The notes under the pieces are model-generated. The model made no database searches, had not been told where the DNA came from, and saw nothing but the letters and a program-made list of their open reading frames with translations. Positions 33,064 to 42,085 of a stretch of DNA of 64,000 bases are shown here, in pieces. The DNA comes from a virus: IMG/VR virus record IMGVR_UViG_3300000062_000005, one strand, 5' to 3'. The position numbers were made by a program, and so were the translations under genes. Position 1 is the stretch's first letter. Each line of letters opens with the position of its first letter.

Positions 33064-33648
33064 ATGTTAATAATAGTTGAAGGATTTGACAATTCTGGAA
33101 AAACCACCCTGTGCAATTTTCTAGAGGAAAAGCTAAGTCATTTCACTAAAGTCACTCGGTATAAAAATGACAACCTGACAGATCACAAACATAGGCTCAC
33201 CGAGATCCTCGCATCAACCCACCTCCATCCTGTGGTTTTATGTGATAGAATAAGCATCATTGGTGAGGAGGTATATGGTAAAGTTCTTAGAGGAAAAAGT
33301 TGTTGGAACTTAACTCTAGAAGAAATATGGACTTCCTTCATGAACTCCATCCCCTCCTCCATACCTGTGGTATTTATATACTGTCTGCCCTCTAATCCGG
33401 AGCTTGGTAACAAGCCTGAGATGGAAGGTGTGATAGAACATCAGGAGGCTCTGAGAAAAGCTTACCATCAAGCCGCATTAACCACTGAAAAGGTATTCTA
33501 CAATGCAAGCCATGTAAAGATAAGCAATAATAGATACTTCCGTACATATGATTACCAAAAAGATGGAAATTTTTTATTGATAGAGGCCTTTATTGATTAT
33601 ATAATAAGTTATCACGGGTTGTTAGATTCGTGGAAAGAAAGAGGGTAA
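33064..33648 (+). CDS. dNMP (thymidylate-kinase-like) kinase
   Basis: N-terminal IIVEGFDNSGKTT P-loop; LCDR motif. Confidence 0.8.
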   Translation: MLIIVEGFDNSGKTTLCNFLEEKLSHFTKVTRYKNDNLTDHKHRLTEILASTHLHPVVLCDRISIIGEEVYGKVLRGKSCWNLTLEEIWTSFMNSIPSSIPVVFIYCLPSNPELGNKPEMEGVIEHQEALRKAYHQAALTTEKVFYNASHVKISNNRYFRTYDYQKDGNFLLIEAFIDYIISYHGLLDSWKERG

Positions 33649-34346
33649 AGAAATTGAACGTAAAAGACGTACAGGCGATTCTTAGCACAGGGGGAGAAGA
33701 CAGACTTTATCAAATGTTGGCCACACAAACTGAGTTGATGGAAAAATATCATGAGATCGAGGGTAAATTACGCCTAACACAGGATTGCCCTGTGGACTTG
33801 AATGATAGTCGAGGCCAACTCCTCTTGAAGGATTTTGCTTGGAGAGCCACAGAAGAGGTTGCAGAAGCTCTGTCTGCCATGCGAGATCATCAGGACCCTG
33901 ATTCTCTACTCCATGCACAGGAAGAAATTGCAGATGCTCTACATTTCCTGTTGGAAATGTTCTTGCTGTCTGTATCAGGAGACAGCAATGAGCTTAGCTA
34001 CTTCGACCCTCCAGAAGGATATGTATACAAAGGAGATCGCCTGACTCAACTGTACAAGCAAGCGGTATATCAGTCAGGACCTGTTCCGATGCACTTCGTG
34101 GATATCGAGACTGAGACCTTAGAATTCATCCGGCAGCTTGGAATGGTATGTCATACACTTAAGAACAAGCCTTGGAAACAAACACAAATGCTGACTGATA
34201 AGGGTGAATACCATCGTAGAATGCATGGTGTCTTGGTTCAATTCTGCAGAATGGCTCATACCTTCCAAATGGATGATGAGGCTCTGTTCCAAATGTACCA
34301 CAGAAAGTCTGAAGTGAATAAGTTCCGCCAAAGATCTGCATATTAA
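33630..34346 (+). CDS. All-alpha dNTP pyrophosphatase (dUTPase_2 / T4 gp56 dCTPase-like)
   Basis: EEVAEA, EEIADALHF, LKNKPWKQ and C-terminal YHRKSEVNKFRQRSAY. Confidence 0.8.
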   Translation: MERKRVKKLNVKDVQAILSTGGEDRLYQMLATQTELMEKYHEIEGKLRLTQDCPVDLNDSRGQLLLKDFAWRATEEVAEALSAMRDHQDPDSLLHAQEEIADALHFLLEMFLLSVSGDSNELSYFDPPEGYVYKGDRLTQLYKQAVYQSGPVPMHFVDIETETLEFIRQLGMVCHTLKNKPWKQTQMLTDKGEYHRRMHGVLVQFCRMAHTFQMDDEALFQMYHRKSEVNKFRQRSAY

Positions 34347-34364: not shown

Positions 34365-34559
34365 ATGGCAGAGGCTATACAATGTGACAAGTGCAAAAAA
34401 TTTGAGACTGATTTGAAGGGAACTAAGGTTCTTAGAATATTCAATGGTCTCCTTAGAAATAATAGTGAAGCAAAAGACTTTGACCTATGTCCCACATGTC
34501 TTAAGGAATTGGAGGGCTGGTTACATGAGGATTCAAAAGCCGGTGACCCAGAGACCTAA
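34365..34559 (+). CDS. Small Zn-ribbon protein
   Basis: CDKC...DLCPTC. Confidence 0.7.
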   Translation: MAEAIQCDKCKKFETDLKGTKVLRIFNGLLRNNSEAKDFDLCPTCLKELEGWLHEDSKAGDPET

Positions 34560-34773
34560 GGTAATTATAGATTTTGAAGCCCCTATTCCGCCCACAAAAA
34601 AGCAAATGGCTTTCATCGATGACATAGAGACCTACACAGGGGTAAAATTCCGTGGAGAAACTATGGAAGAAGCCAGTGAATATATCACTTGTTACATCGA
34701 TGAATACAGAGACAGAAGGAGAGAGGATGAATTTGGAGAAGATATACTCCGATACCCAGGAAGAAAGTGGTAG
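34525..34773 (+). CDS. Hypothetical protein (probable start 34525)
   Basis: PTKKQMAFIDDIE..FRGETMEEASEYI motif common in Firmicutes phages; GGAGG RBS before the ATG at 34525. Confidence 0.6.
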   Translation: MRIQKPVTQRPKVIIDFEAPIPPTKKQMAFIDDIETYTGVKFRGETMEEASEYITCYIDEYRDRRREDEFGEDILRYPGRKW

Positions 34774-35572
34774 CTTAAAAGCTAACTGGATGAAAATGCT
34801 ATGCACTGTGGCTGAAACACCTTCTTCCTCCACCCAATTCTCAGGCATCAAATATCTAGCTGATTTTCACTACAGCATGCCAGGAAAGGCCTTTTTAGAG
34901 TCTCCAGACTACAATTTATCTGATTTAGGATATGCCAGTCCAGGGACTGCTAAGATGAACCAACTGATGAGAAATTATCTAGATGAGGAGTCCATAGCGA
35001 TAGCAGGACTGAAGCTACATTCCAGAGAAAAGCAGGAATTTACCTCTGTGATTATAAATACACAGGCGAAGGGTAAATCTTCTAAGTCACAAGGACACTG
35101 CATGGTAGGAATAGTGCTAACAAAAAATTCCAAAAAAGTAAAAGAGGGTAAAATTTATCGTATCTCGGTGATGTATCGCATGACTGAATCTATCAGAAAA
35201 TTCGGAGCAGACCTGTTATTCTTCCAAGACATCCTATTTCCTGCCATTTTGGGAGATGAGATAGATAAGCTAGATACAGTCAATTTCCACTTTGCTAACC
35301 TATCATTTTCTCCCTTGTTTTTCCCCATAGTCATGGACAAGATAGATCTTAGAGATTTTATGAAGAAGCTAGAGGAAAATATGAACTGTCACAGGGCTGT
35401 GTTAGGAGTAATACGAAGAGATATGGAACATGAGGAAGGGTTCCATGCTTTTCGTACCCGTAATATTATGCAGAACATTGCCCACAAAACATACAAAAAT
35501 CATCCTGAGATAAAAGAGACTTTGAAGGAGCTTATAAGAGAGCATGGGAAAGAAGTATCGGACGAAGCATAA
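34727..35572 (+). CDS. Divergent thymidylate-synthase-fold protein (paralogue 2)
   Basis: [26 protein letters not shown] and VNFHFANL align loosely with the TS PC, RSxD..N/D and H..SLH segments; probable start 34727 (AGGAG RBS). Confidence 0.55.
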
Positions 35573-36196: not shown

Positions 36197-36849
36197 ATGA
36201 TAATAATCGAGCCAAGCGTAACTATCTTATCTCCTACCTTCAACACTAGCAAAGACTTCATGAAGGCCATAGAAATAGCAGGAAGAACTTGCTATAAATC
36301 AGAGGATAAGATAACAGCAACATCTTCCACAGACTTTGTCAGGAGACTGATAGCTAGCAAGCACGAGGCCATGCTAGAACATGCCCCTAATATCTCTATG
36401 AGATTCATCTGTGATAGGGGAGTATCACACGAACTGGTTAGACATAGACTTTTCAGCTTTGCACAAGAGAGCACTAGATATGTCAGATATTCCAATGGAC
36501 TAAAGAATCACATAACCTTTATAAAGCCCACAGAACTTAGTAATATTGATGACCAATTGTTCAAAGATCAAGCATACTTCGCCTGGAGAATGCACTGTGT
36601 AAAAGCTGAAAAAGCATACCTTGAACTTCTTGACCTTGGAGTTCCCCGCAGATGGCTCGGTCAGTGCTTCCTAATAGCTTGAAGACTGAAATAATTATCA
36701 CAGGAAATGTGAGAGAGTGGAGACATTTCTTTAAGCTAAGAACTGCTCCAGATGCCCATCCCCAGATGAGGCAGGTCGCTTCAGAGGCCTTAGAAAAGAT
36801 TAGTATGATACTTCCGGTGCTGTTTGAGGATATTACAGAAAGTAGGTGA
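36197..36849 (+). pseudogene. thyX: FAD-dependent thymidylate synthase split by a frameshift at the C4 run 36644-36647
   Basis: 5' part has HEAMLEH and SHELVRHRLFSFAQESTRY; 3' part has ARSVLPNSLKTE, WRHFFKLR and AHPQMR. One extra C restores GVPPQMARSVLP. Confidence 0.88.
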
Positions 36850-38068: not shown

Positions 38069-38284
38069 ATGGACGAAGTAAAATTTATCACTATCTCAAG
38101 GGATGAGTTCCGGCAGAAAGTTGTGAAAGCTCTAGAAAACAATAAGTTGTTAAAAGAGACTATCTCAAGTTCTCCTATGATGGGCTTAGGATTTTCAATG
38201 GTAGTCATGGAAACTACCCAGCTTTTGGAAAAAGATCTTTTTGGTTTTGAAGAAACAGATATTCATGAGGAGGAAATACTATGA
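38069..38284 (+). CDS. Hypothetical protein
   Basis: 71 aa, AAGGAGG RBS. Confidence 0.7.
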   Translation: MDEVKFITISRDEFRQKVVKALENNKLLKETISSSPMMGLGFSMVVMETTQLLEKDLFGFEETDIHEEEIL

Positions 38285-38985
38285 GGATTTACAAGGATTT
38301 TAAGGAGGCACATGGAGAAATTCTACGGGATGTCGTAGAAATGGGTATCATCGTTAAGCCCAAGACTATGCAAGACAAGTATATTGAGGGCAATCCCGAC
38401 TACCAGACCAAGGAAGTTCAAAATTATGGTTATGTAGTAACAGGCCCAGACCTTTCTGATCTCAATCCCAACCAACCTTGGGCAGATAAGGAATTTTATG
38501 AAAGAGTATCCCCCTACCCCATAAACCCAGGAGAGGCTTGGAAACACAGGAGAGAGGTATGGACCGAATTTCTTCACGCTGCAATTCCTGGTGATGGGTA
38601 TGAAGGCCCTCACTTTGGATATTCCTACTCCGAAAGATTCAGTGCTGATGATGGGTTGGAGAGGATTATCCAAAGAATCAAGGAAGACCCTGACAGCCGA
38701 CAGCTGTACTTGTCTGTCTGGAATCCTGCAGATATTGAATTCTTAGGTGGAAAAGGAAGAGTTCCCTGCTCTCTAGGCTATCTATTCCAAGTAAGAGACA
38801 ATCAGCTCAACATGACCTACAGCATGAGAAGCTGTGATGTATTTACCCATTTCCACAATGACGTATATCTGGCATTTATGTTACAGAAATACGTGGCTGA
38901 AAGAACTCTTTACCCCACAGGAAACTTTACACACTTCATCAATTCCTTACATATCTATCAAAAAGATGCTGTAGGTATCTTCTGA
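38281..38985 (+). CDS. Thymidylate-synthase-family enzyme, dCMP hydroxymethylase/methylase-like
   Basis: DSRQ, catalytic VPCS, MRSCDVFTHFHNDV (Asp at the pyrimidine-specificity site), SLHIY. Confidence 0.8.
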   Translation: MRIYKDFKEAHGEILRDVVEMGIIVKPKTMQDKYIEGNPDYQTKEVQNYGYVVTGPDLSDLNPNQPWADKEFYERVSPYPINPGEAWKHRREVWTEFLHAAIPGDGYEGPHFGYSYSERFSADDGLERIIQRIKEDPDSRQLYLSVWNPADIEFLGGKGRVPCSLGYLFQVRDNQLNMTYSMRSCDVFTHFHNDVYLAFMLQKYVAERTLYPTGNFTHFINSLHIYQKDAVGIF

Positions 38986-39410
38986 TGAGAATAAGTAGGG
39001 AAGAGCTTAAACTAAGGCTGGTGGACCTAGTAGCCCAAAGGTCCACCTGCCCTAGGGCAAACGTAGGATGTGCGATATTCAAAGATGGAAGAGTGGTAGT
39101 AACAGGCTATAATAGCAGTCCAGCTGGCATGGACCATTGCTCTGATGTAGGATGTCTGATGGAACAAGGAAAATGCATTAGAACTGTACATGCTGAAGCT
39201 GGAGCCATCTCATTTGCAGCAAGAGAGGGAATATCTCTGAAAGATACAGAAATGTACCTCACTTTCTCTCCCTGCATAGATTGTGCAAAACTTATAGTTA
39301 ACTCAGGGATAAAGGCTGTATATTATCTACAGCAATACAGAATTGTAGATGGGATTATCCTACTACAACAAGCTGGAATCATCTGTGAAAGGAAGGAGCC
39401 TAATGGGTAG
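38985..39410 (+). CDS. dCMP deaminase
   Basis: RSTCPR..VGC, TGYN, HAEAGAI and SPCIDCAK motifs. Confidence 0.93.
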   Translation: MRISREELKLRLVDLVAQRSTCPRANVGCAIFKDGRVVVTGYNSSPAGMDHCSDVGCLMEQGKCIRTVHAEAGAISFAAREGISLKDTEMYLTFSPCIDCAKLIVNSGIKAVYYLQQYRIVDGIILLQQAGIICERKEPNG

Positions 39411-39684
39411 GAGAGCACAGTTCCATCTAGTATGTCAATCCTGCGGAGAAACTTTCTATAGCTACACGGCTAGAGTATATTGTGATAGTTGCTTCCGGGC
39501 TGGAAAGTCTTTGAAATTATTCAGGAAACTAGAAGAATATAAAATACTAACATCAAAAGAGCTAGAGCTAATGACTAAAGAACATGATTTAAGTATATCT
39601 AGAGTTCATCAGTTGTTGAAAGAAACTGGATGGGAATATGTAAGAATCTGGAAGAGAAAAGGTACGGTGATCAAAGGTGAATGA
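39403..39684 (+). CDS. Zn-finger plus HTH protein (probable start 39403)
   Basis: CQSC...CDSC followed by LSISRVHQLL; AAGGAG RBS. Confidence 0.6.
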   Translation: MGRRAQFHLVCQSCGETFYSYTARVYCDSCFRAGKSLKLFRKLEEYKILTSKELELMTKEHDLSISRVHQLLKETGWEYVRIWKRKGTVIKGE

Positions 39685-42085
39685 CATAAGGAATGAGAAT
39701 TGTGAACTGTGCAAACTGTGTGATACCACCGACCGAGTATGTGTCATGGGTAATGGCCCTACAAACGCAGAGATCATGGTGATAGGAGAAGCTCCTGGAG
39801 CTCATGAAGAACGAACTGGAAAACCTTTTCAAGGGAGAGCTGGACAACTGCTAGATTCCCTGCTTCAGAAAAATGGAATAAGTAGAGAAGATCTGTATGT
39901 TACCAATGTAGTACACTGTAGACCCCCTGATAATAGAACACCCACAGCGGCTGAGATTAAAGCATGTAAGCCCTACTTAGAAAAGGAAATTAAGATTGTA
40001 TCTCCCAAGTACATTCTGTGTCTGGGAGCCACAGCTTACAAAGCGATTTTTGGAAAAGCTGGGGTGATGGAAGCAAGAGGAACTCTATATAAGAAAGATG
40101 GAATAAACTATTTTGTTACCATACACCCAGCTGCAGCCCTGCGACAGCCTAAGATGGCCCCCTTTCTGGAAATGGATATTAAGAAATTTGCAGATATCAC
40201 TAGGGGAGAAGTACCTTCTGAGGATGACATAGAATGGACCTATGTAGATACCTTTGAGAAACTAGAGGCCTGTGTATCTGATCTGAATAAATCAAAAGCT
40301 ATATCTTTTGACTTTGAAACCTCTAGTCTGAATCCCGTAGATGGATATATTTATTGTCTAGGAATATCAAATGAAGATCACAGCTGGGCTATACCCTTCA
40401 ACTACATAGGCTCTCCATTTCCCCAGGAGGCCGAGAAGAAAATTCTAAGACTATTACACAAGATATTCTTAGGAAAGAAGATTATAGCCCATAATGGAAA
40501 ATTTGATGGAAAATGGTTTGTCACAAAAGCAAACGTTGTGGTAGACCAGACTTTTGACACTATGTTAGCATCCCACCTTTTGGATGAGAATAGGTTGCAC
40601 GGGTTAAAACCCTTAGCTAAAATGTATTTTAATGCCTCAAATTATGAGATCAAATTTCCTATCAAAGAGTTATCCAGAGTACCCCAGGAAAGGATAAGGA
40701 GCTTTATACCTAAGTCCAAAGATACCCCAGATATAAAGACATTGTGTCGATACTGTGCTTACGATACACATTATACCTTTAGAAACTATCGAAAATTCCG
40801 CAAAGAGTTACTAAGTGAAAGAGCTCTTCTGACAATTTATCAGAAATTACTAATGCCTGCCTCAAACATGCTTCAAGAGATGGAGTTAGATGGTGTATAC
40901 ATAAACTTCGACAAGTATAAGGAAGTAACTATATCTTTGGAAGAAAAAACGGAGAAATTACTGAGAAAACTGAATAAGCTATCTGAAGGCAAAGTAAAAA
41001 ATTGGAACTCTACAAAGCAGGTAGCAAATTACCTATTTGATGACCTTGGACTTCCTGTTCTGGAGAAGACTGCCTCTGGAGCCCCCTCAACCTCTGGAGA
41101 ATCAGTACTTCCTAGGCTAGTGGAATATCACCAAATAGTTCAAGTTTTACTTGATTATCGTGAAAATATTAAACTACAGCAATTCATAACTTCCTGGGGA
41201 AACTCCATGGATATCAGTCACTACATGCATCCCACCTTCAAATTACACGGGACTGTCACAGGAAGATTATCCTGTGTGGAACCTAATCTTCAGCAGGTAC
41301 CTCGGGACCCACAGCTGAGAAGCCTTATAACAGCCCCAGAGGGGTGGACATTGATAGAGGCTGACTATTCACAGGCGGAATTAAGAGTAGCTGCTATGCT
41401 GGCAAATGAGCCTGCTATGAAACTTGCATATCAAACAGGACAAGACATACATACTAAGACTGCTTCAGCGGTTATGTCTATTCCTATATCTGATGTCACA
41501 TCTGCAGACCGAAAAAAGGCAAAGGCTGTAAACTTTGGTTTTCTCTATGGAATGTCAGCTAAAAAATTCCGGATATACGCAAGGGACAAATATGATGTAG
41601 ATCTGACAGATAAAGAAGCACAGAGATTCCGAGACAGATTCTTCGAATTATACCCAGGGCTTCCGGCATGGCATGAAAGACAACGACAGTTGGCAAGAAA
41701 GTATAAATACGTTAGAAGTCCTCTTGGAAGAAAAAGAAGACTTCCAGAAGTTGACTCTGATGACAGGGGAGCTATCGCTGAAGCAGAACGTCAGGCCATA
41801 AATTCTCCTGTTCAAGGATTTGCCTCTGATATGTGTCTTTATTCTATGGTCAGAATGCATAAGGAATTTAACCCGAGCTATTGGAGACCCGTAGGATTAG
41901 TTCATGACGCAACTTTAAGTATGGTAAGAAACGATAAGCTACATGAGGTAGCTAAAAGAATAAAAGAGATAATGCAGGACTCTGAGACTGTGGAAAAAGT
42001 GTTCAACTGTAATCTTACTGTTCCCATCGTAGCTGATGTTAAGGTAGGACCTTGGGGAAAAGGAGTTGAATGGAATGGAGATTGA
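39677..42085 (+). CDS. polA: Family A DNA polymerase with an N-terminal family-4 uracil-DNA-glycosylase domain (SPO1-like architecture)
   Basis: UDG: CELC..C, GEAPG, TNVVHCRPP, HPAA. 3'-5' exonuclease: DFET, HNGKFD, YCAYD. Polymerase: DYSQAELR, KAVNFGFLYG, VHD. Confidence 0.95.
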   Translation: MNDIRNENCELCKLCDTTDRVCVMGNGPTNAEIMVIGEAPGAHEERTGKPFQGRAGQLLDSLLQKNGISREDLYVTNVVHCRPPDNRTPTAAEIKACKPYLEKEIKIVSPKYILCLGATAYKAIFGKAGVMEARGTLYKKDGINYFVTIHPAAALRQPKMAPFLEMDIKKFADITRGEVPSEDDIEWTYVDTFEKLEACVSDLNKSKAISFDFETSSLNPVDGYIYCLGISNEDHSWAIPFNYIGSPFPQEAEKKILRLLHKIFLGKKIIAHNGKFDGKWFVTKANVVVDQTFDTMLASHLLDENRLHGLKPLAKMYFNASNYEIKFPIKELSRVPQERIRSFIPKSKDTPDIKTLCRYCAYDTHYTFRNYRKFRKELLSERALLTIYQKLLMPASNMLQEMELDGVYINFDKYKEVTISLEEKTEKLLRKLNKLSEGKVKNWNSTKQVANYLFDDLGLPVLEKTASGAPSTSGESVLPRLVEYHQIVQVLLDYRENIKLQQFITSWGNSMDISHYMHPTFKLHGTVTGRLSCVEPNLQQVPRDPQLRSLITAPEGWTLIEADYSQAELRVAAMLANEPAMKLAYQTGQDIHTKTASAVMSIPISDVTSADRKKAKAVNFGFLYGMSAKKFRIYARDKYDVDLTDKEAQRFRDRFFELYPGLPAWHERQRQLARKYKYVRSPLGRKRRLPEVDSDDRGAIAEAERQAINSPVQGFASDMCLYSMVRMHKEFNPSYWRPVGLVHDATLSMVRNDKLHEVAKRIKEIMQDSETVEKVFNCNLTVPIVADVKVGPWGKGVEWNGD

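Follow-up and report, generated by a model that had tools for sequence, protein, structure and literature searches.

The thymidylate synthase (TS) superfamily is the entry point for almost every known DNA pyrimidine modification of phages. Phage T4 carries two TS-fold enzymes, td and the deoxycytidylate (dCMP) hydroxymethylase (dCH) gp42. Enzymes of the family are obligate dimers whose active sites borrow arginines from the other protomer, and Glu58 (T4 Glu60) is conserved across all TS, CMP hydroxymethylase (CH) and dCH enzymes and is required for the activation of methylene-tetrahydrofolate (methylene-THF; PMC6400193). The present report concerns a further, much more divergent branch of this superfamily, which escapes Pfam-based surveys. 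Its representative, here named TSA, is the product of the open reading frame (ORF) 34727-35572 in the IMG/VR virus record IMGVR_UViG_3300000062_000005, of which a stretch of 64,000 nucleotides (the window) was analysed; the product of 38281-38985 in the same stretch is named TSB. TSA descends from the TS superfamily and represents a new, divergent branch with a conserved genomic partner.

Several described systems come close to this locus. The flavin-dependent 5-hydroxy-dCMP synthases (HY126 AfhB, structures 9iqu/9iqc; RB69 gp48; DLP3 gp80) carry D169N as diagnostic residue and document a shift of TS-fold enzymes from folate to flavin that was demonstrated in 2025-26, the AfhB family being a precedent for leaving folate chemistry; an acidic residue at the position of E. 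coli L143 is linked to hydroxymethyl products (PMC13326640). The Xp12/PaMx74-type pathway to 5-methyl-dCMP uses an N177D TS, a MazG-like dNTPase and a deaminase selective for 5-methylcytosine (5mC). Metagenomic contigs that carry modified cytosine show an enrichment of neighbourhoods of the type TS(N177D)-deaminase-MazG-PolA; expressed on their own, five of seven such N177D TS homologues yielded 5-methyl-dCMP (preprint 10.1101/2024.12.05.627091). TSA would be invisible in that neighbourhood analysis, because it carries no Pfam domain. The module in the window resembles the Xp12/PaMx74-type pathway in its MazG-type pyrophosphohydrolase, N177D TS, cytidylate deaminase and PolA. In contrast to the window, PaMx74 has no TSA, its ThyA keeps R-R and P175, and dihydrofolate reductase is also encoded; the TSB enzymes linked to TSA belong to a subfamily of their own ([S/T]-R-Q, R-x-P-C-[S/T], R-S-C-D-x3-H-[F/W]-x2-D) and end at about E. 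coli residue 217.

The initial annotation had assigned a TS fold to TSA by eye, and this fold is verified in the predicted structure. A template-free AlphaFold2 (AF2) model, built on an alignment of 101 sequences, reached a predicted local distance difference test (pLDDT) value of 93.4 and a predicted template modelling score of 0.90. The top matches of the model in a Foldseek search of the PDB were all members of the TS family, namely the AfhB dCMP hydroxylase 9iqu, MilA, the T4 dCH and ThyA. With VIA-align, the model was aligned to 9iqu at Z 12.8 (182 residues, 3.6 A), to many ThyA chains and MilA at Z 10-11, and to the T4 dCH at Z 9.7-10. The structural overlap with TS-family chains amounts to about 175-183 residues with Z of 9-12.8 and an identity of approximately 6-10%. 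When 48,161 representative chains were scanned in an unbiased way, independently of Foldseek, all seven chains with Z≥8 were TS family members (7/7), and the next chain scored Z 5.3. The TS-like portion corresponds to approximately residues 13-209 and keeps the central sheet in the model; the C-terminal 75 or so residues alone yielded generic helical matches at Z≤5.3. The AfhB structures 9iqu and 9iqc are the nearest neighbours (Z 12.3-12.8), a likeness of fold that shows no cofactor, and they stand just some 2 Z units ahead of the other TS chains. The AfhB type shares with TSA its phage TS fold and an Asp at position 177. It differs in the diagnostic D169N, where TSA has Glu154 (92%) or Tyr, and AfhB-type proteins are ordinary PF00303-type homologues that act alone. 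TSA, by contrast, has diverged much further and comes as a pair with TSB.

TS kinship of TSA cannot be claimed on sequence alone. Pfam and NCBIfam searches with TSA gave zero matches, and sequence searches of the PDB, both with the single sequence and with the 101-sequence profile, were empty. PHROG 34294, a family of unknown function, matches TSA at E 1.2e-9, with residues 62-262 of TSA aligned to positions 52-236 of its profile (length 249); it carries no annotation of function, fold or context, and the TS-fold assignment, the conserved residues and the linkage to TSB are added here. An exhaustive phmmer search over 1.84 billion representatives retrieved 207 clusters at E≤0.001. When one genome per prokaryote species (185,579 species) was searched, a single contig of a metagenome-assembled genome was found; TSA is a nearly virus-confined family, neither cellular nor prophage-borne. 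Its neighbours in the ESM Atlas are almost entirely viral clusters of "hypothetical proteins", a few of which partly carry PF00303. Longer TSA homologues of 298-418 aa are without any Pfam domain. No TSA-TSB or TSA-kinase fusion turned up in a weak search for such forms, nor was a TSA fusion seen among the ESM Atlas neighbours. These neighbours do include viral fusions of PF00303 with thymidylate kinase (437 aa) or dCMP deaminase (444 aa).

The literature search found no description of the TSA family and no report of DNA modification for isolates carrying TSA. Some GenBank records auto-annotate TSA homologues as "pyrimidine hmase synthase". In Clostridium phage CPAS-15, CPAS15_0021 (L025:5208-5957) bears the product name "colanic acid biosynthesis glycosyltransferase WcaC", probably wrongly, since the protein matches the TSA hidden Markov model (HMM) at E 6e-30 and its gene lies directly 5' of a TS gene.

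Conservation was evaluated in 173 TSA-family sequences, including a branch from actinophages, with a mean identity of about 22%. Near-invariant are Cys125 (99%), Asp162 (99%), Tyr84 (98%) and Arg151 (97%), followed by Leu80 (95%), Lys76 (94%, plus 4% Arg) and Tyr69 (92%). Glu154 is kept in 92% of the sequences and is Tyr in the actinophage branch. The motifs on which the initial annotation was based, HC in place of PC (SQGHC, with Cys125) and YRMTE..KFGAD (Arg151, Glu154 and Asp162), with no SLHxY motif present in the TSA sequence, are found as described and lie among the most conserved positions of the family. Relative to R166-S167-x-D169 of TS, a motif that contacts phosphate and folate, the Arg is retained, Ser is replaced by Met, and Asp by Glu154 or Tyr.

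The register of these residues was derived from profile alignments. With hhalign, a first alignment of TSA homologues gave P=0.1 against the TSB-family alignment; after the actinophage branch and more TS sequences had been added, P improved to a weakly significant 0.002 (173 TSA sequences against 28 TS sequences, 175 collinear columns). Cys125 pairs with Cys163 of TSB, Arg151 with Arg183, Glu154 with Asp186 and Asp162 with Asp194, and according to PDB alignments of TSB these partners are C146, R166, D169 and N177 of E. coli TS. The same pairing of C125, R151, E154 and D162 was obtained in three hhalign runs, so that the Asp at the specificity position, also part of the initial annotation, recurs as Asp162 in every register obtained. 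The spacing in TSA is that of TS, with 11 residues from Arg to Asp/Asn and 8 between the equivalents of D169 and N177, and in the AF2 model Cys125 stands at the start of strand 126-134. For the remote actinophage branch, represented by Gordonia phage Mayweather gp54, hhalign gave the alignment with TSA a probability of 94% (E 1e-7 over 223 columns). The proteins of this branch read G-S-C-M and S-R-A-C-Y-V-G-Y-L-S-P-L-D, with Pro and Asp 9 and 11 residues past the Arg, which is the spacing of P175 and N177 from R166 in TS; the branch thus bridges the gap between TSA and TS.

The residues for the handling of folate present another picture. Over their N-terminal 120 residues, the 173 sequences have no acidic residue that reaches 75% conservation, and Glu154 and Asp162 are the sole conserved acidic residues of the family. 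The column opposite the invariant Glu45 of TSB, tentatively the counterpart of E. coli Glu58, holds Tyr43 of TSA, beside Lys42, in a low-confidence region of the hhalign alignment. A motif of the H207/Y209 type is not conserved in the family. As far as residue conservation indicates, TSA has retained the nucleotide half of the TS site and lost a recognisable folate half. Arg100 is invariant among close homologues and Lys in Triscuit gp64 and Zuko gp75 (TS dimers donate Arg126'/127'), and Gln122, three residues before Cys125, is likewise invariant in close homologues. Compared with ThyA and T4 gp42 (PF00303), TSA thus has the same alpha/beta fold over about 180 residues, a Cys at the start of the central strand, and an Arg 11 residues ahead of the base-specifying residue, which is Asp as in T4 gp42 (Asp179; PMC6400193). 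Unlike these enzymes, TSA has no PF00303 match, no counterpart of Glu58/Glu60 and no motif of the H207/Y209 type; D169 is exchanged for Glu or Tyr and the C-terminus for about 75 helical residues; and TSA is never encoded alone, accompanying another TS homologue. The counterpart of E. coli L143 is also acidic in T4 gp42 (Asp145), and is Gln122 in TSA.

TSB is a more readily recognised member of the family. It is matched by PF00303 at E 7e-21, and its AF2 model (pLDDT 84) aligns with AfhB, MilA and ThyA at Z 18-19.5 and about 20% identity. In the alignment with PDB TS chains, D194 of TSB falls on N177, and D169 is kept; because of this combination and the published signatures (PMC13326640), TSB is predicted to be a dCMP-type enzyme and not a D169N hydroxylase. 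Since the protein ends at about E. coli residue 217, it is without the C-terminal lid of TS. All TSA-linked TSB enzymes share the signature [S/T]-R-Q (not R-R), Arg at L143, P-C-[S/T], R-S-C-D-x3-H-[F/W]-x2-D and S-L-H-x-[F/Y], with an invariant His at the E. coli G173 position. This signature differs from that of PaMx74 ThyA and from that of the canonical TS of Microbacterium phage Triscuit (gp67), and TSB is a distinct TS subfamily. The R-Q motif was also considered as a mark of dependence on TSA and ruled out, as TSB enzymes without TSA retain T-R-Q.

The two genes are coupled in many genomes. TSB stands beside TSA in 20/20 informative TSA-centred IMG/VR loci, in the order TSA-TSB in 13 and TSB-TSA in 7. 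Cytidylate deaminase and PolA then follow in nearly all of them, and a gene for a deoxynucleoside monophosphate (dNMP) kinase or a MazG-type dNTPase precedes the pair in more than half; in L018 and L022 the contig end is met first. From the side of TSB, the best 80 of at least 559 IMG/VR loci were examined, of which 79 were informative and one was cut by the contig end; TSA was found in 69 of the 79, in 65 with the TSA HMM within 5 kb and in 4 with a broadened HMM. The co-occurrence with a dCMP-type TS that follows from the initial annotation is therefore observed from both sides. Of the ten TSB loci without TSA, three come from contigs of jumbo-phage size or related ones and four from contigs nearly identical to each other; L089, L105 and L108 make up the rest. 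The relation is asymmetric, as no TSA without TSB was seen among the informative loci and TSB sometimes occurs without TSA.

In GenBank, TSB lies next to TSA in the same arrangement in phage MW202455 and Yersinia phage P744, and the arrangement is also present in Clostridium phage CPAS-15, Lebethron and STP12. For the actinophage branch, 85 GenBank records were found in which the TSA-like gene usually adjoins an annotated thymidylate synthase or dUTPase/MazG gene. In four actinophage loci that were opened, the TS gene is located directly 3' of the TSA-like gene in three, and after one small gene in Triscuit. As annotated, stop and start of the pair overlap by 4 nt in Mayweather, Zuko and MW202455 and are separated by 2 nt in Muddy. 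The hosts of the module thereby include Firmicutes (CPAS-15), Proteobacteria (P744, Lebethron, STP12) and Actinobacteria (Muddy, Mayweather, Triscuit, Zuko). An ordinary dTMP synthase is additionally encoded in Triscuit (a canonical TS) and in MW202455 and the window (ThyX in both); because of this, the TSA/TSB pair is not expected to serve the synthesis of dTMP from dUMP. What goes beyond the initial annotation is that TSA is without the folate-activating half, that TSB is a distinct subfamily, and that the pair is widespread and reaches actinophages such as Muddy.

From the observed fold, residue conservation, motif spacing and genomic coupling, proposals can be made for substrate, catalysis, order of action and cofactor. 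The explanation to which we give a slight preference is that TSA is an active, non-canonical, Cys-dependent second enzyme for a cytosine deoxynucleotide, acting with or after TSB in pre-replicative cytosine modification and without canonical folate chemistry. Cys125 would attack the pyrimidine at C6, with the 5'-phosphate bound by Arg151; cytosine would be recognised and protonated at N3/N4 by Asp162, in the manner of Asp179 of T4 dCMP hydroxymethylase. Glu154 stands in place of Asp169. TSA would in this way covalently engage dCMP or, more likely, a C5-substituted dCMP made by TSB. Binding of a cytosine deoxynucleotide, very probably with formation of a C6 adduct, is suggested because Cys, Arg and Asp are near-invariant. 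The chemistry would not begin with the canonical activation of methylene-THF, and three features speak against ordinary methylene-THF chemistry: the lack of a Glu58 counterpart, a D169 position that varies, and a C-terminus of a new kind. TSA would work after TSB or in a complex with it, downstream or accessory rather than autonomous, because TSA was never seen without TSB and TSB sometimes occurs without TSA. A more specific form, which must be considered rather doubtful, is a relay of two TS folds, in which TSA as a folate-independent Cys-dependent enzyme turns the C5-substituted dCMP of TSB, or an enzyme-bound exocyclic-methylene intermediate, into an undescribed cytosine derivative.

A number of points weigh against TSA as a second enzyme of this kind. 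Sequence homology to TS is weak: none of the 101 aligned homologues matches PF00303 at E≤1, and the hhalign probability for the 173 TSA sequences against the 28 TS sequences is just 14%. The equivalences between TSA and TS residues were drawn from the fold, the spacing and three concordant weak profile alignments, not from a coordinate superposition. Rather than turnover, the role of the conserved Cys, Arg and Asp could be to bind a nucleotide tightly within a regulatory subunit. TSA is dispensable for at least some TSB enzymes, since TSB lacks it in about 10 of the 79 informative loci, and in the window itself the two genes are separated by 2.7 kb holding a 3D-domain gene, ThyX and a ligase gene. 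The co-occurrence counts are not independent, the loci being related by descent (shared PolA and primase); they do come, however, from three host phyla, with both gene orders represented and with PolA similarities between E=0 and 1e-70.

The initial annotation had left the choice between a second modifying enzyme and a non-catalytic partner of the enzyme at 38281. The TS fold and the partnership with TSB hold; between the two alternatives, the near-invariance of Cys, Arg and Asp would favour the enzyme. As a partner, TSA would be regulatory, forming a hetero-oligomer with TSB through the beta-sheet interface of the TS type, with a pocket that only binds a nucleotide, and would tune the specificity, the stability or the place of TSB in a dNTP-synthesising complex. 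The sharing of active-site arginines between the protomers of TS-family dimers (PMC6400193) is in keeping with this, as are genes that mostly adjoin or share 4 nt, a typical trait of genes for subunits, a central sheet that is kept without the residues that handle the cofactor, and the presence in TSB of one of the two donated arginines ([S/T]-R-Q versus R-R). The last point is offset by the stand-alone TSB enzymes, in which the motif does not track the presence of TSA, and several lineages have TSB without TSA altogether; no TSA-TSB fusion was found in the weak search. An inert subunit has no obvious need of a nucleophile, yet the conservation of Cys125 stays at 99% even where identity falls to about 20%. 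Conservation of 97-99% at a mean identity of about 22% is hard to explain by a purely structural role. The partner explanation is judged to be a minority possibility.

We regard as improbable that TSA is a conventional folate-dependent dCMP C5-methylase or hydroxymethylase that has diverged and duplicates or complements TSB, giving a second ordinary base (5mC or 5-hydroxymethylcytosine). Cys, Arg and Asp do occupy the positions that define dCMP-type TS enzymes, td and gp42 of T4 set an example of two TS-fold enzymes in one phage, and the "pyrimidine hmase synthase" label of some GenBank homologues points the same way. However, the Glu58/Glu60 counterpart, with its role in folate activation (PMC6400193), is not conserved, the D169 position is Glu in TSA and Tyr in the actinophage branch, unrelated helices replace the C-terminal segment of TS, 0/101 members give a PF00303 signal, and TSA is never found alone as would be expected for an autonomous enzyme. 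Action outside the nucleotide pool made by TSB, either on residual unmodified cytosine in a polynucleotide, after the manner of a C5-cytosine DNA methyltransferase, or by trapping or inhibiting a host pyrimidine enzyme or nucleotide, is likewise unlikely. It would be in agreement with a PF00145-like gene, for another enzyme with Cys at C6, in the MazG-TSB slot of L089 and L105, which lack TSA; L082, however, carries TSA, TSB and the methyltransferase together, so that the two are not strictly alternative, and the slot also takes unrelated insertions, e.g. a ligase gene. Arg151 moreover suits the 5'-phosphate of a mononucleotide, and TS-fold enzymes are not known to act on polynucleotides. That the resemblance to TS is an artefact of the model or of motif matching by eye, and the protein unrelated to TS, appears very improbable. 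Sequence methods alone are indeed not significant against TS; this is outweighed by a template-free model with pLDDT 93 from 101 sequences, an unbiased scan with only TS-family chains above Z 8 and a gap down to Z 5.3, a motif register that is consistent in three profile alignments and in the bridging subfamily, and ESM Atlas neighbours that include clusters partly carrying PF00303.

With TSA beside TSB in hundreds of phages, an unstudied step in the chemistry of phage DNA bases is likely. The function of TSA would complete the model of the pathway and could reveal new C5 chemistry or a new regulation of TS; were the relay true, hundreds of phages over three host phyla, including the therapeutic phage Muddy, would replace cytosine with an unrecognised base. 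For phages already in use, or proposed, for therapy and biocontrol (Muddy, C. perfringens and Yersinia phages), the question is also relevant to how restriction systems, sequencing chemistries and innate immunity see their DNA. The established assay of co-expression in E. coli with liquid chromatography-mass spectrometry makes the function of TSA cheaply testable. The features of the locus are listed in Table 1.

Table 1. Features of TSA and of the surrounding module (positions within the window)
Feature	Position	Strand	Basis
dNMP (thymidylate-type) kinase	33064..33648	+	PHROG 761, E 1.8e-9; weak PF02223
All-alpha MazG/dUTPase_2-type dNTP pyrophosphohydrolase	33630..34346	+	PF08761, E 5e-6; PHROG 12184, E 1.7e-22
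Shine-Dalgarno-like run AAGGAGAGAGG, precedes ATG 34727	34716..34726	+	Read from sequence
TSA, divergent thymidylate-synthase-fold protein, 281 aa	34727..35572	+	ORF, PHROG 34294, AF2 model, TS-fold structure matches
Lys76...Tyr84 helix, near-invariant K/R76, L80, Y84	34952..34978	+	Conservation; TS counterpart tentatively near the Y94 region (enlarged hhalign alignment)
Codon of Cys125, putative nucleophile for attack on C6, position of C146 in E. coli TS	35099..35101	+	Conservation, hhalign pairing with TSB C163
Arg151-Met-Thr-Glu154, TS R166-S-x-D169 position	35177..35188	+	Conservation, hhalign register
Asp162 codon, TS N177 / T4 gp42 D179 base-specificity position	35210..35212	+	Conservation, spacing
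C-terminal helical region, about residues 208-281, absent from TS	35348..35572	+	AF2 helices 208-280; TS alignments mostly stop at about 207-209
TSB, N177D TS-family partner (R140-Q141, R160, C163, R183-S-C-D186, H190, D194, S222-L-H224)	38281..38985	+	PF00303
dCMP/cytidine-type zinc deaminase	38985..39410	+	PF00383, E 7e-24; PHROG 174, E 1e-48
Family A DNA polymerase (PolA), module end	39677..42085	+	tblastn to phage PolA genes

The TSA gene starts with ATG at 34727 and its stop codon ends at 35572. An alternative GTG start at 34652 would lengthen the protein; homologues instead begin at the Met equivalent to ATG 34727. An ORF of 109 aa (34444-34773) shares 47 nt with the beginning of the TSA gene; it matches no family, but is kept in the closest relative, L003 (E 1e-17), as well as in L042, L049 and L054.

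The module runs in the order dNMP kinase, MazG, TSA, TSB, dCMP deaminase and PolA. In related loci the dNMP kinase is likewise located upstream of TSA and a MazG-type gene directly upstream; the deaminase follows TSB in most of them, and PolA is found downstream in nearly all. The replication block at 42-48 kb encodes a Cas4-like nuclease, AAA_24, DUF669 and an SNF2 helicase, and no glycosyltransferases or base-tailoring enzymes were found in the rest of this block. Because a tailoring enzyme is missing there, the TSA/TSB product is probably the final base, or is altered further by the deaminase alone.

In Mycobacterium phage Muddy (L027:4004-5673), gp47, which is annotated as hypothetical and is TSA-like, is followed by gp46, a TS of the TSB type. 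The pair is flanked by a dUTPase/MazG gene and gp45/PolA, as it is in FF47 and Maco2/6; no report on the modification of Muddy DNA was found in the literature search. Microbacterium phage Triscuit (L028:4001-7078) has three successive TS-fold genes, gp64 (TSA-like), gp66 (TSB-type, with Asp177) and gp67, the last being a canonical TS with R-R, P-C-H and F-N-I.

Genes resembling C5-cytosine DNA methyltransferases (PF00145) adjoin TSB in L089 (3856-4995), L105 (3723-4997) and L082 (5684-6736). They are related to each other and contain the motifs G-H-P-x-C-G and D-N-L-P. In L089 and L105 the gene fills the slot between MazG and TSB that is usual for TSA; in L082 it stands after TSB, with TSA present too. 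A replacement of TSA by such a methyltransferase fits the former two loci and, with both genes in L082, is a weak lead only. Unlike these enzymes, TSA is without a Pfam match and has a TS-like fold; they are compared with it as functional analogues only.

Two further genes between TSA and TSB deserve mention. The ThyX gene is spread over two frames, with Thy1 positions 8-134 in 36197-36682 and 137-191 in 36652-36849. A CCCC run at 36644-36647 lies at the break, and with one added C a single frame would be restored; a sequencing error in the homopolymer, a pseudogene or a programmed shift could account for the split. A 3D-domain protein (PF06725, 35544-36161) with a hydrophobic N-terminal segment is encoded between TSA and ThyX, an odd location for a cell-wall-type domain within a block for nucleotide metabolism.

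The PolA family of the window is common to several hundred records of Salmonella, Escherichia and Klebsiella phages, which presumably include the 9g-like 7-deazaguanine phages, and it is also present in Gordonia and Clostridium phages with TSA/TSB. Serratia phage Serbin has been described as related to 9g but without the queuosine cluster (PMC6509536); TSA/TSB are present in this phage in place of that cluster. One replication cassette may host interchangeable DNA-modification sub-modules.

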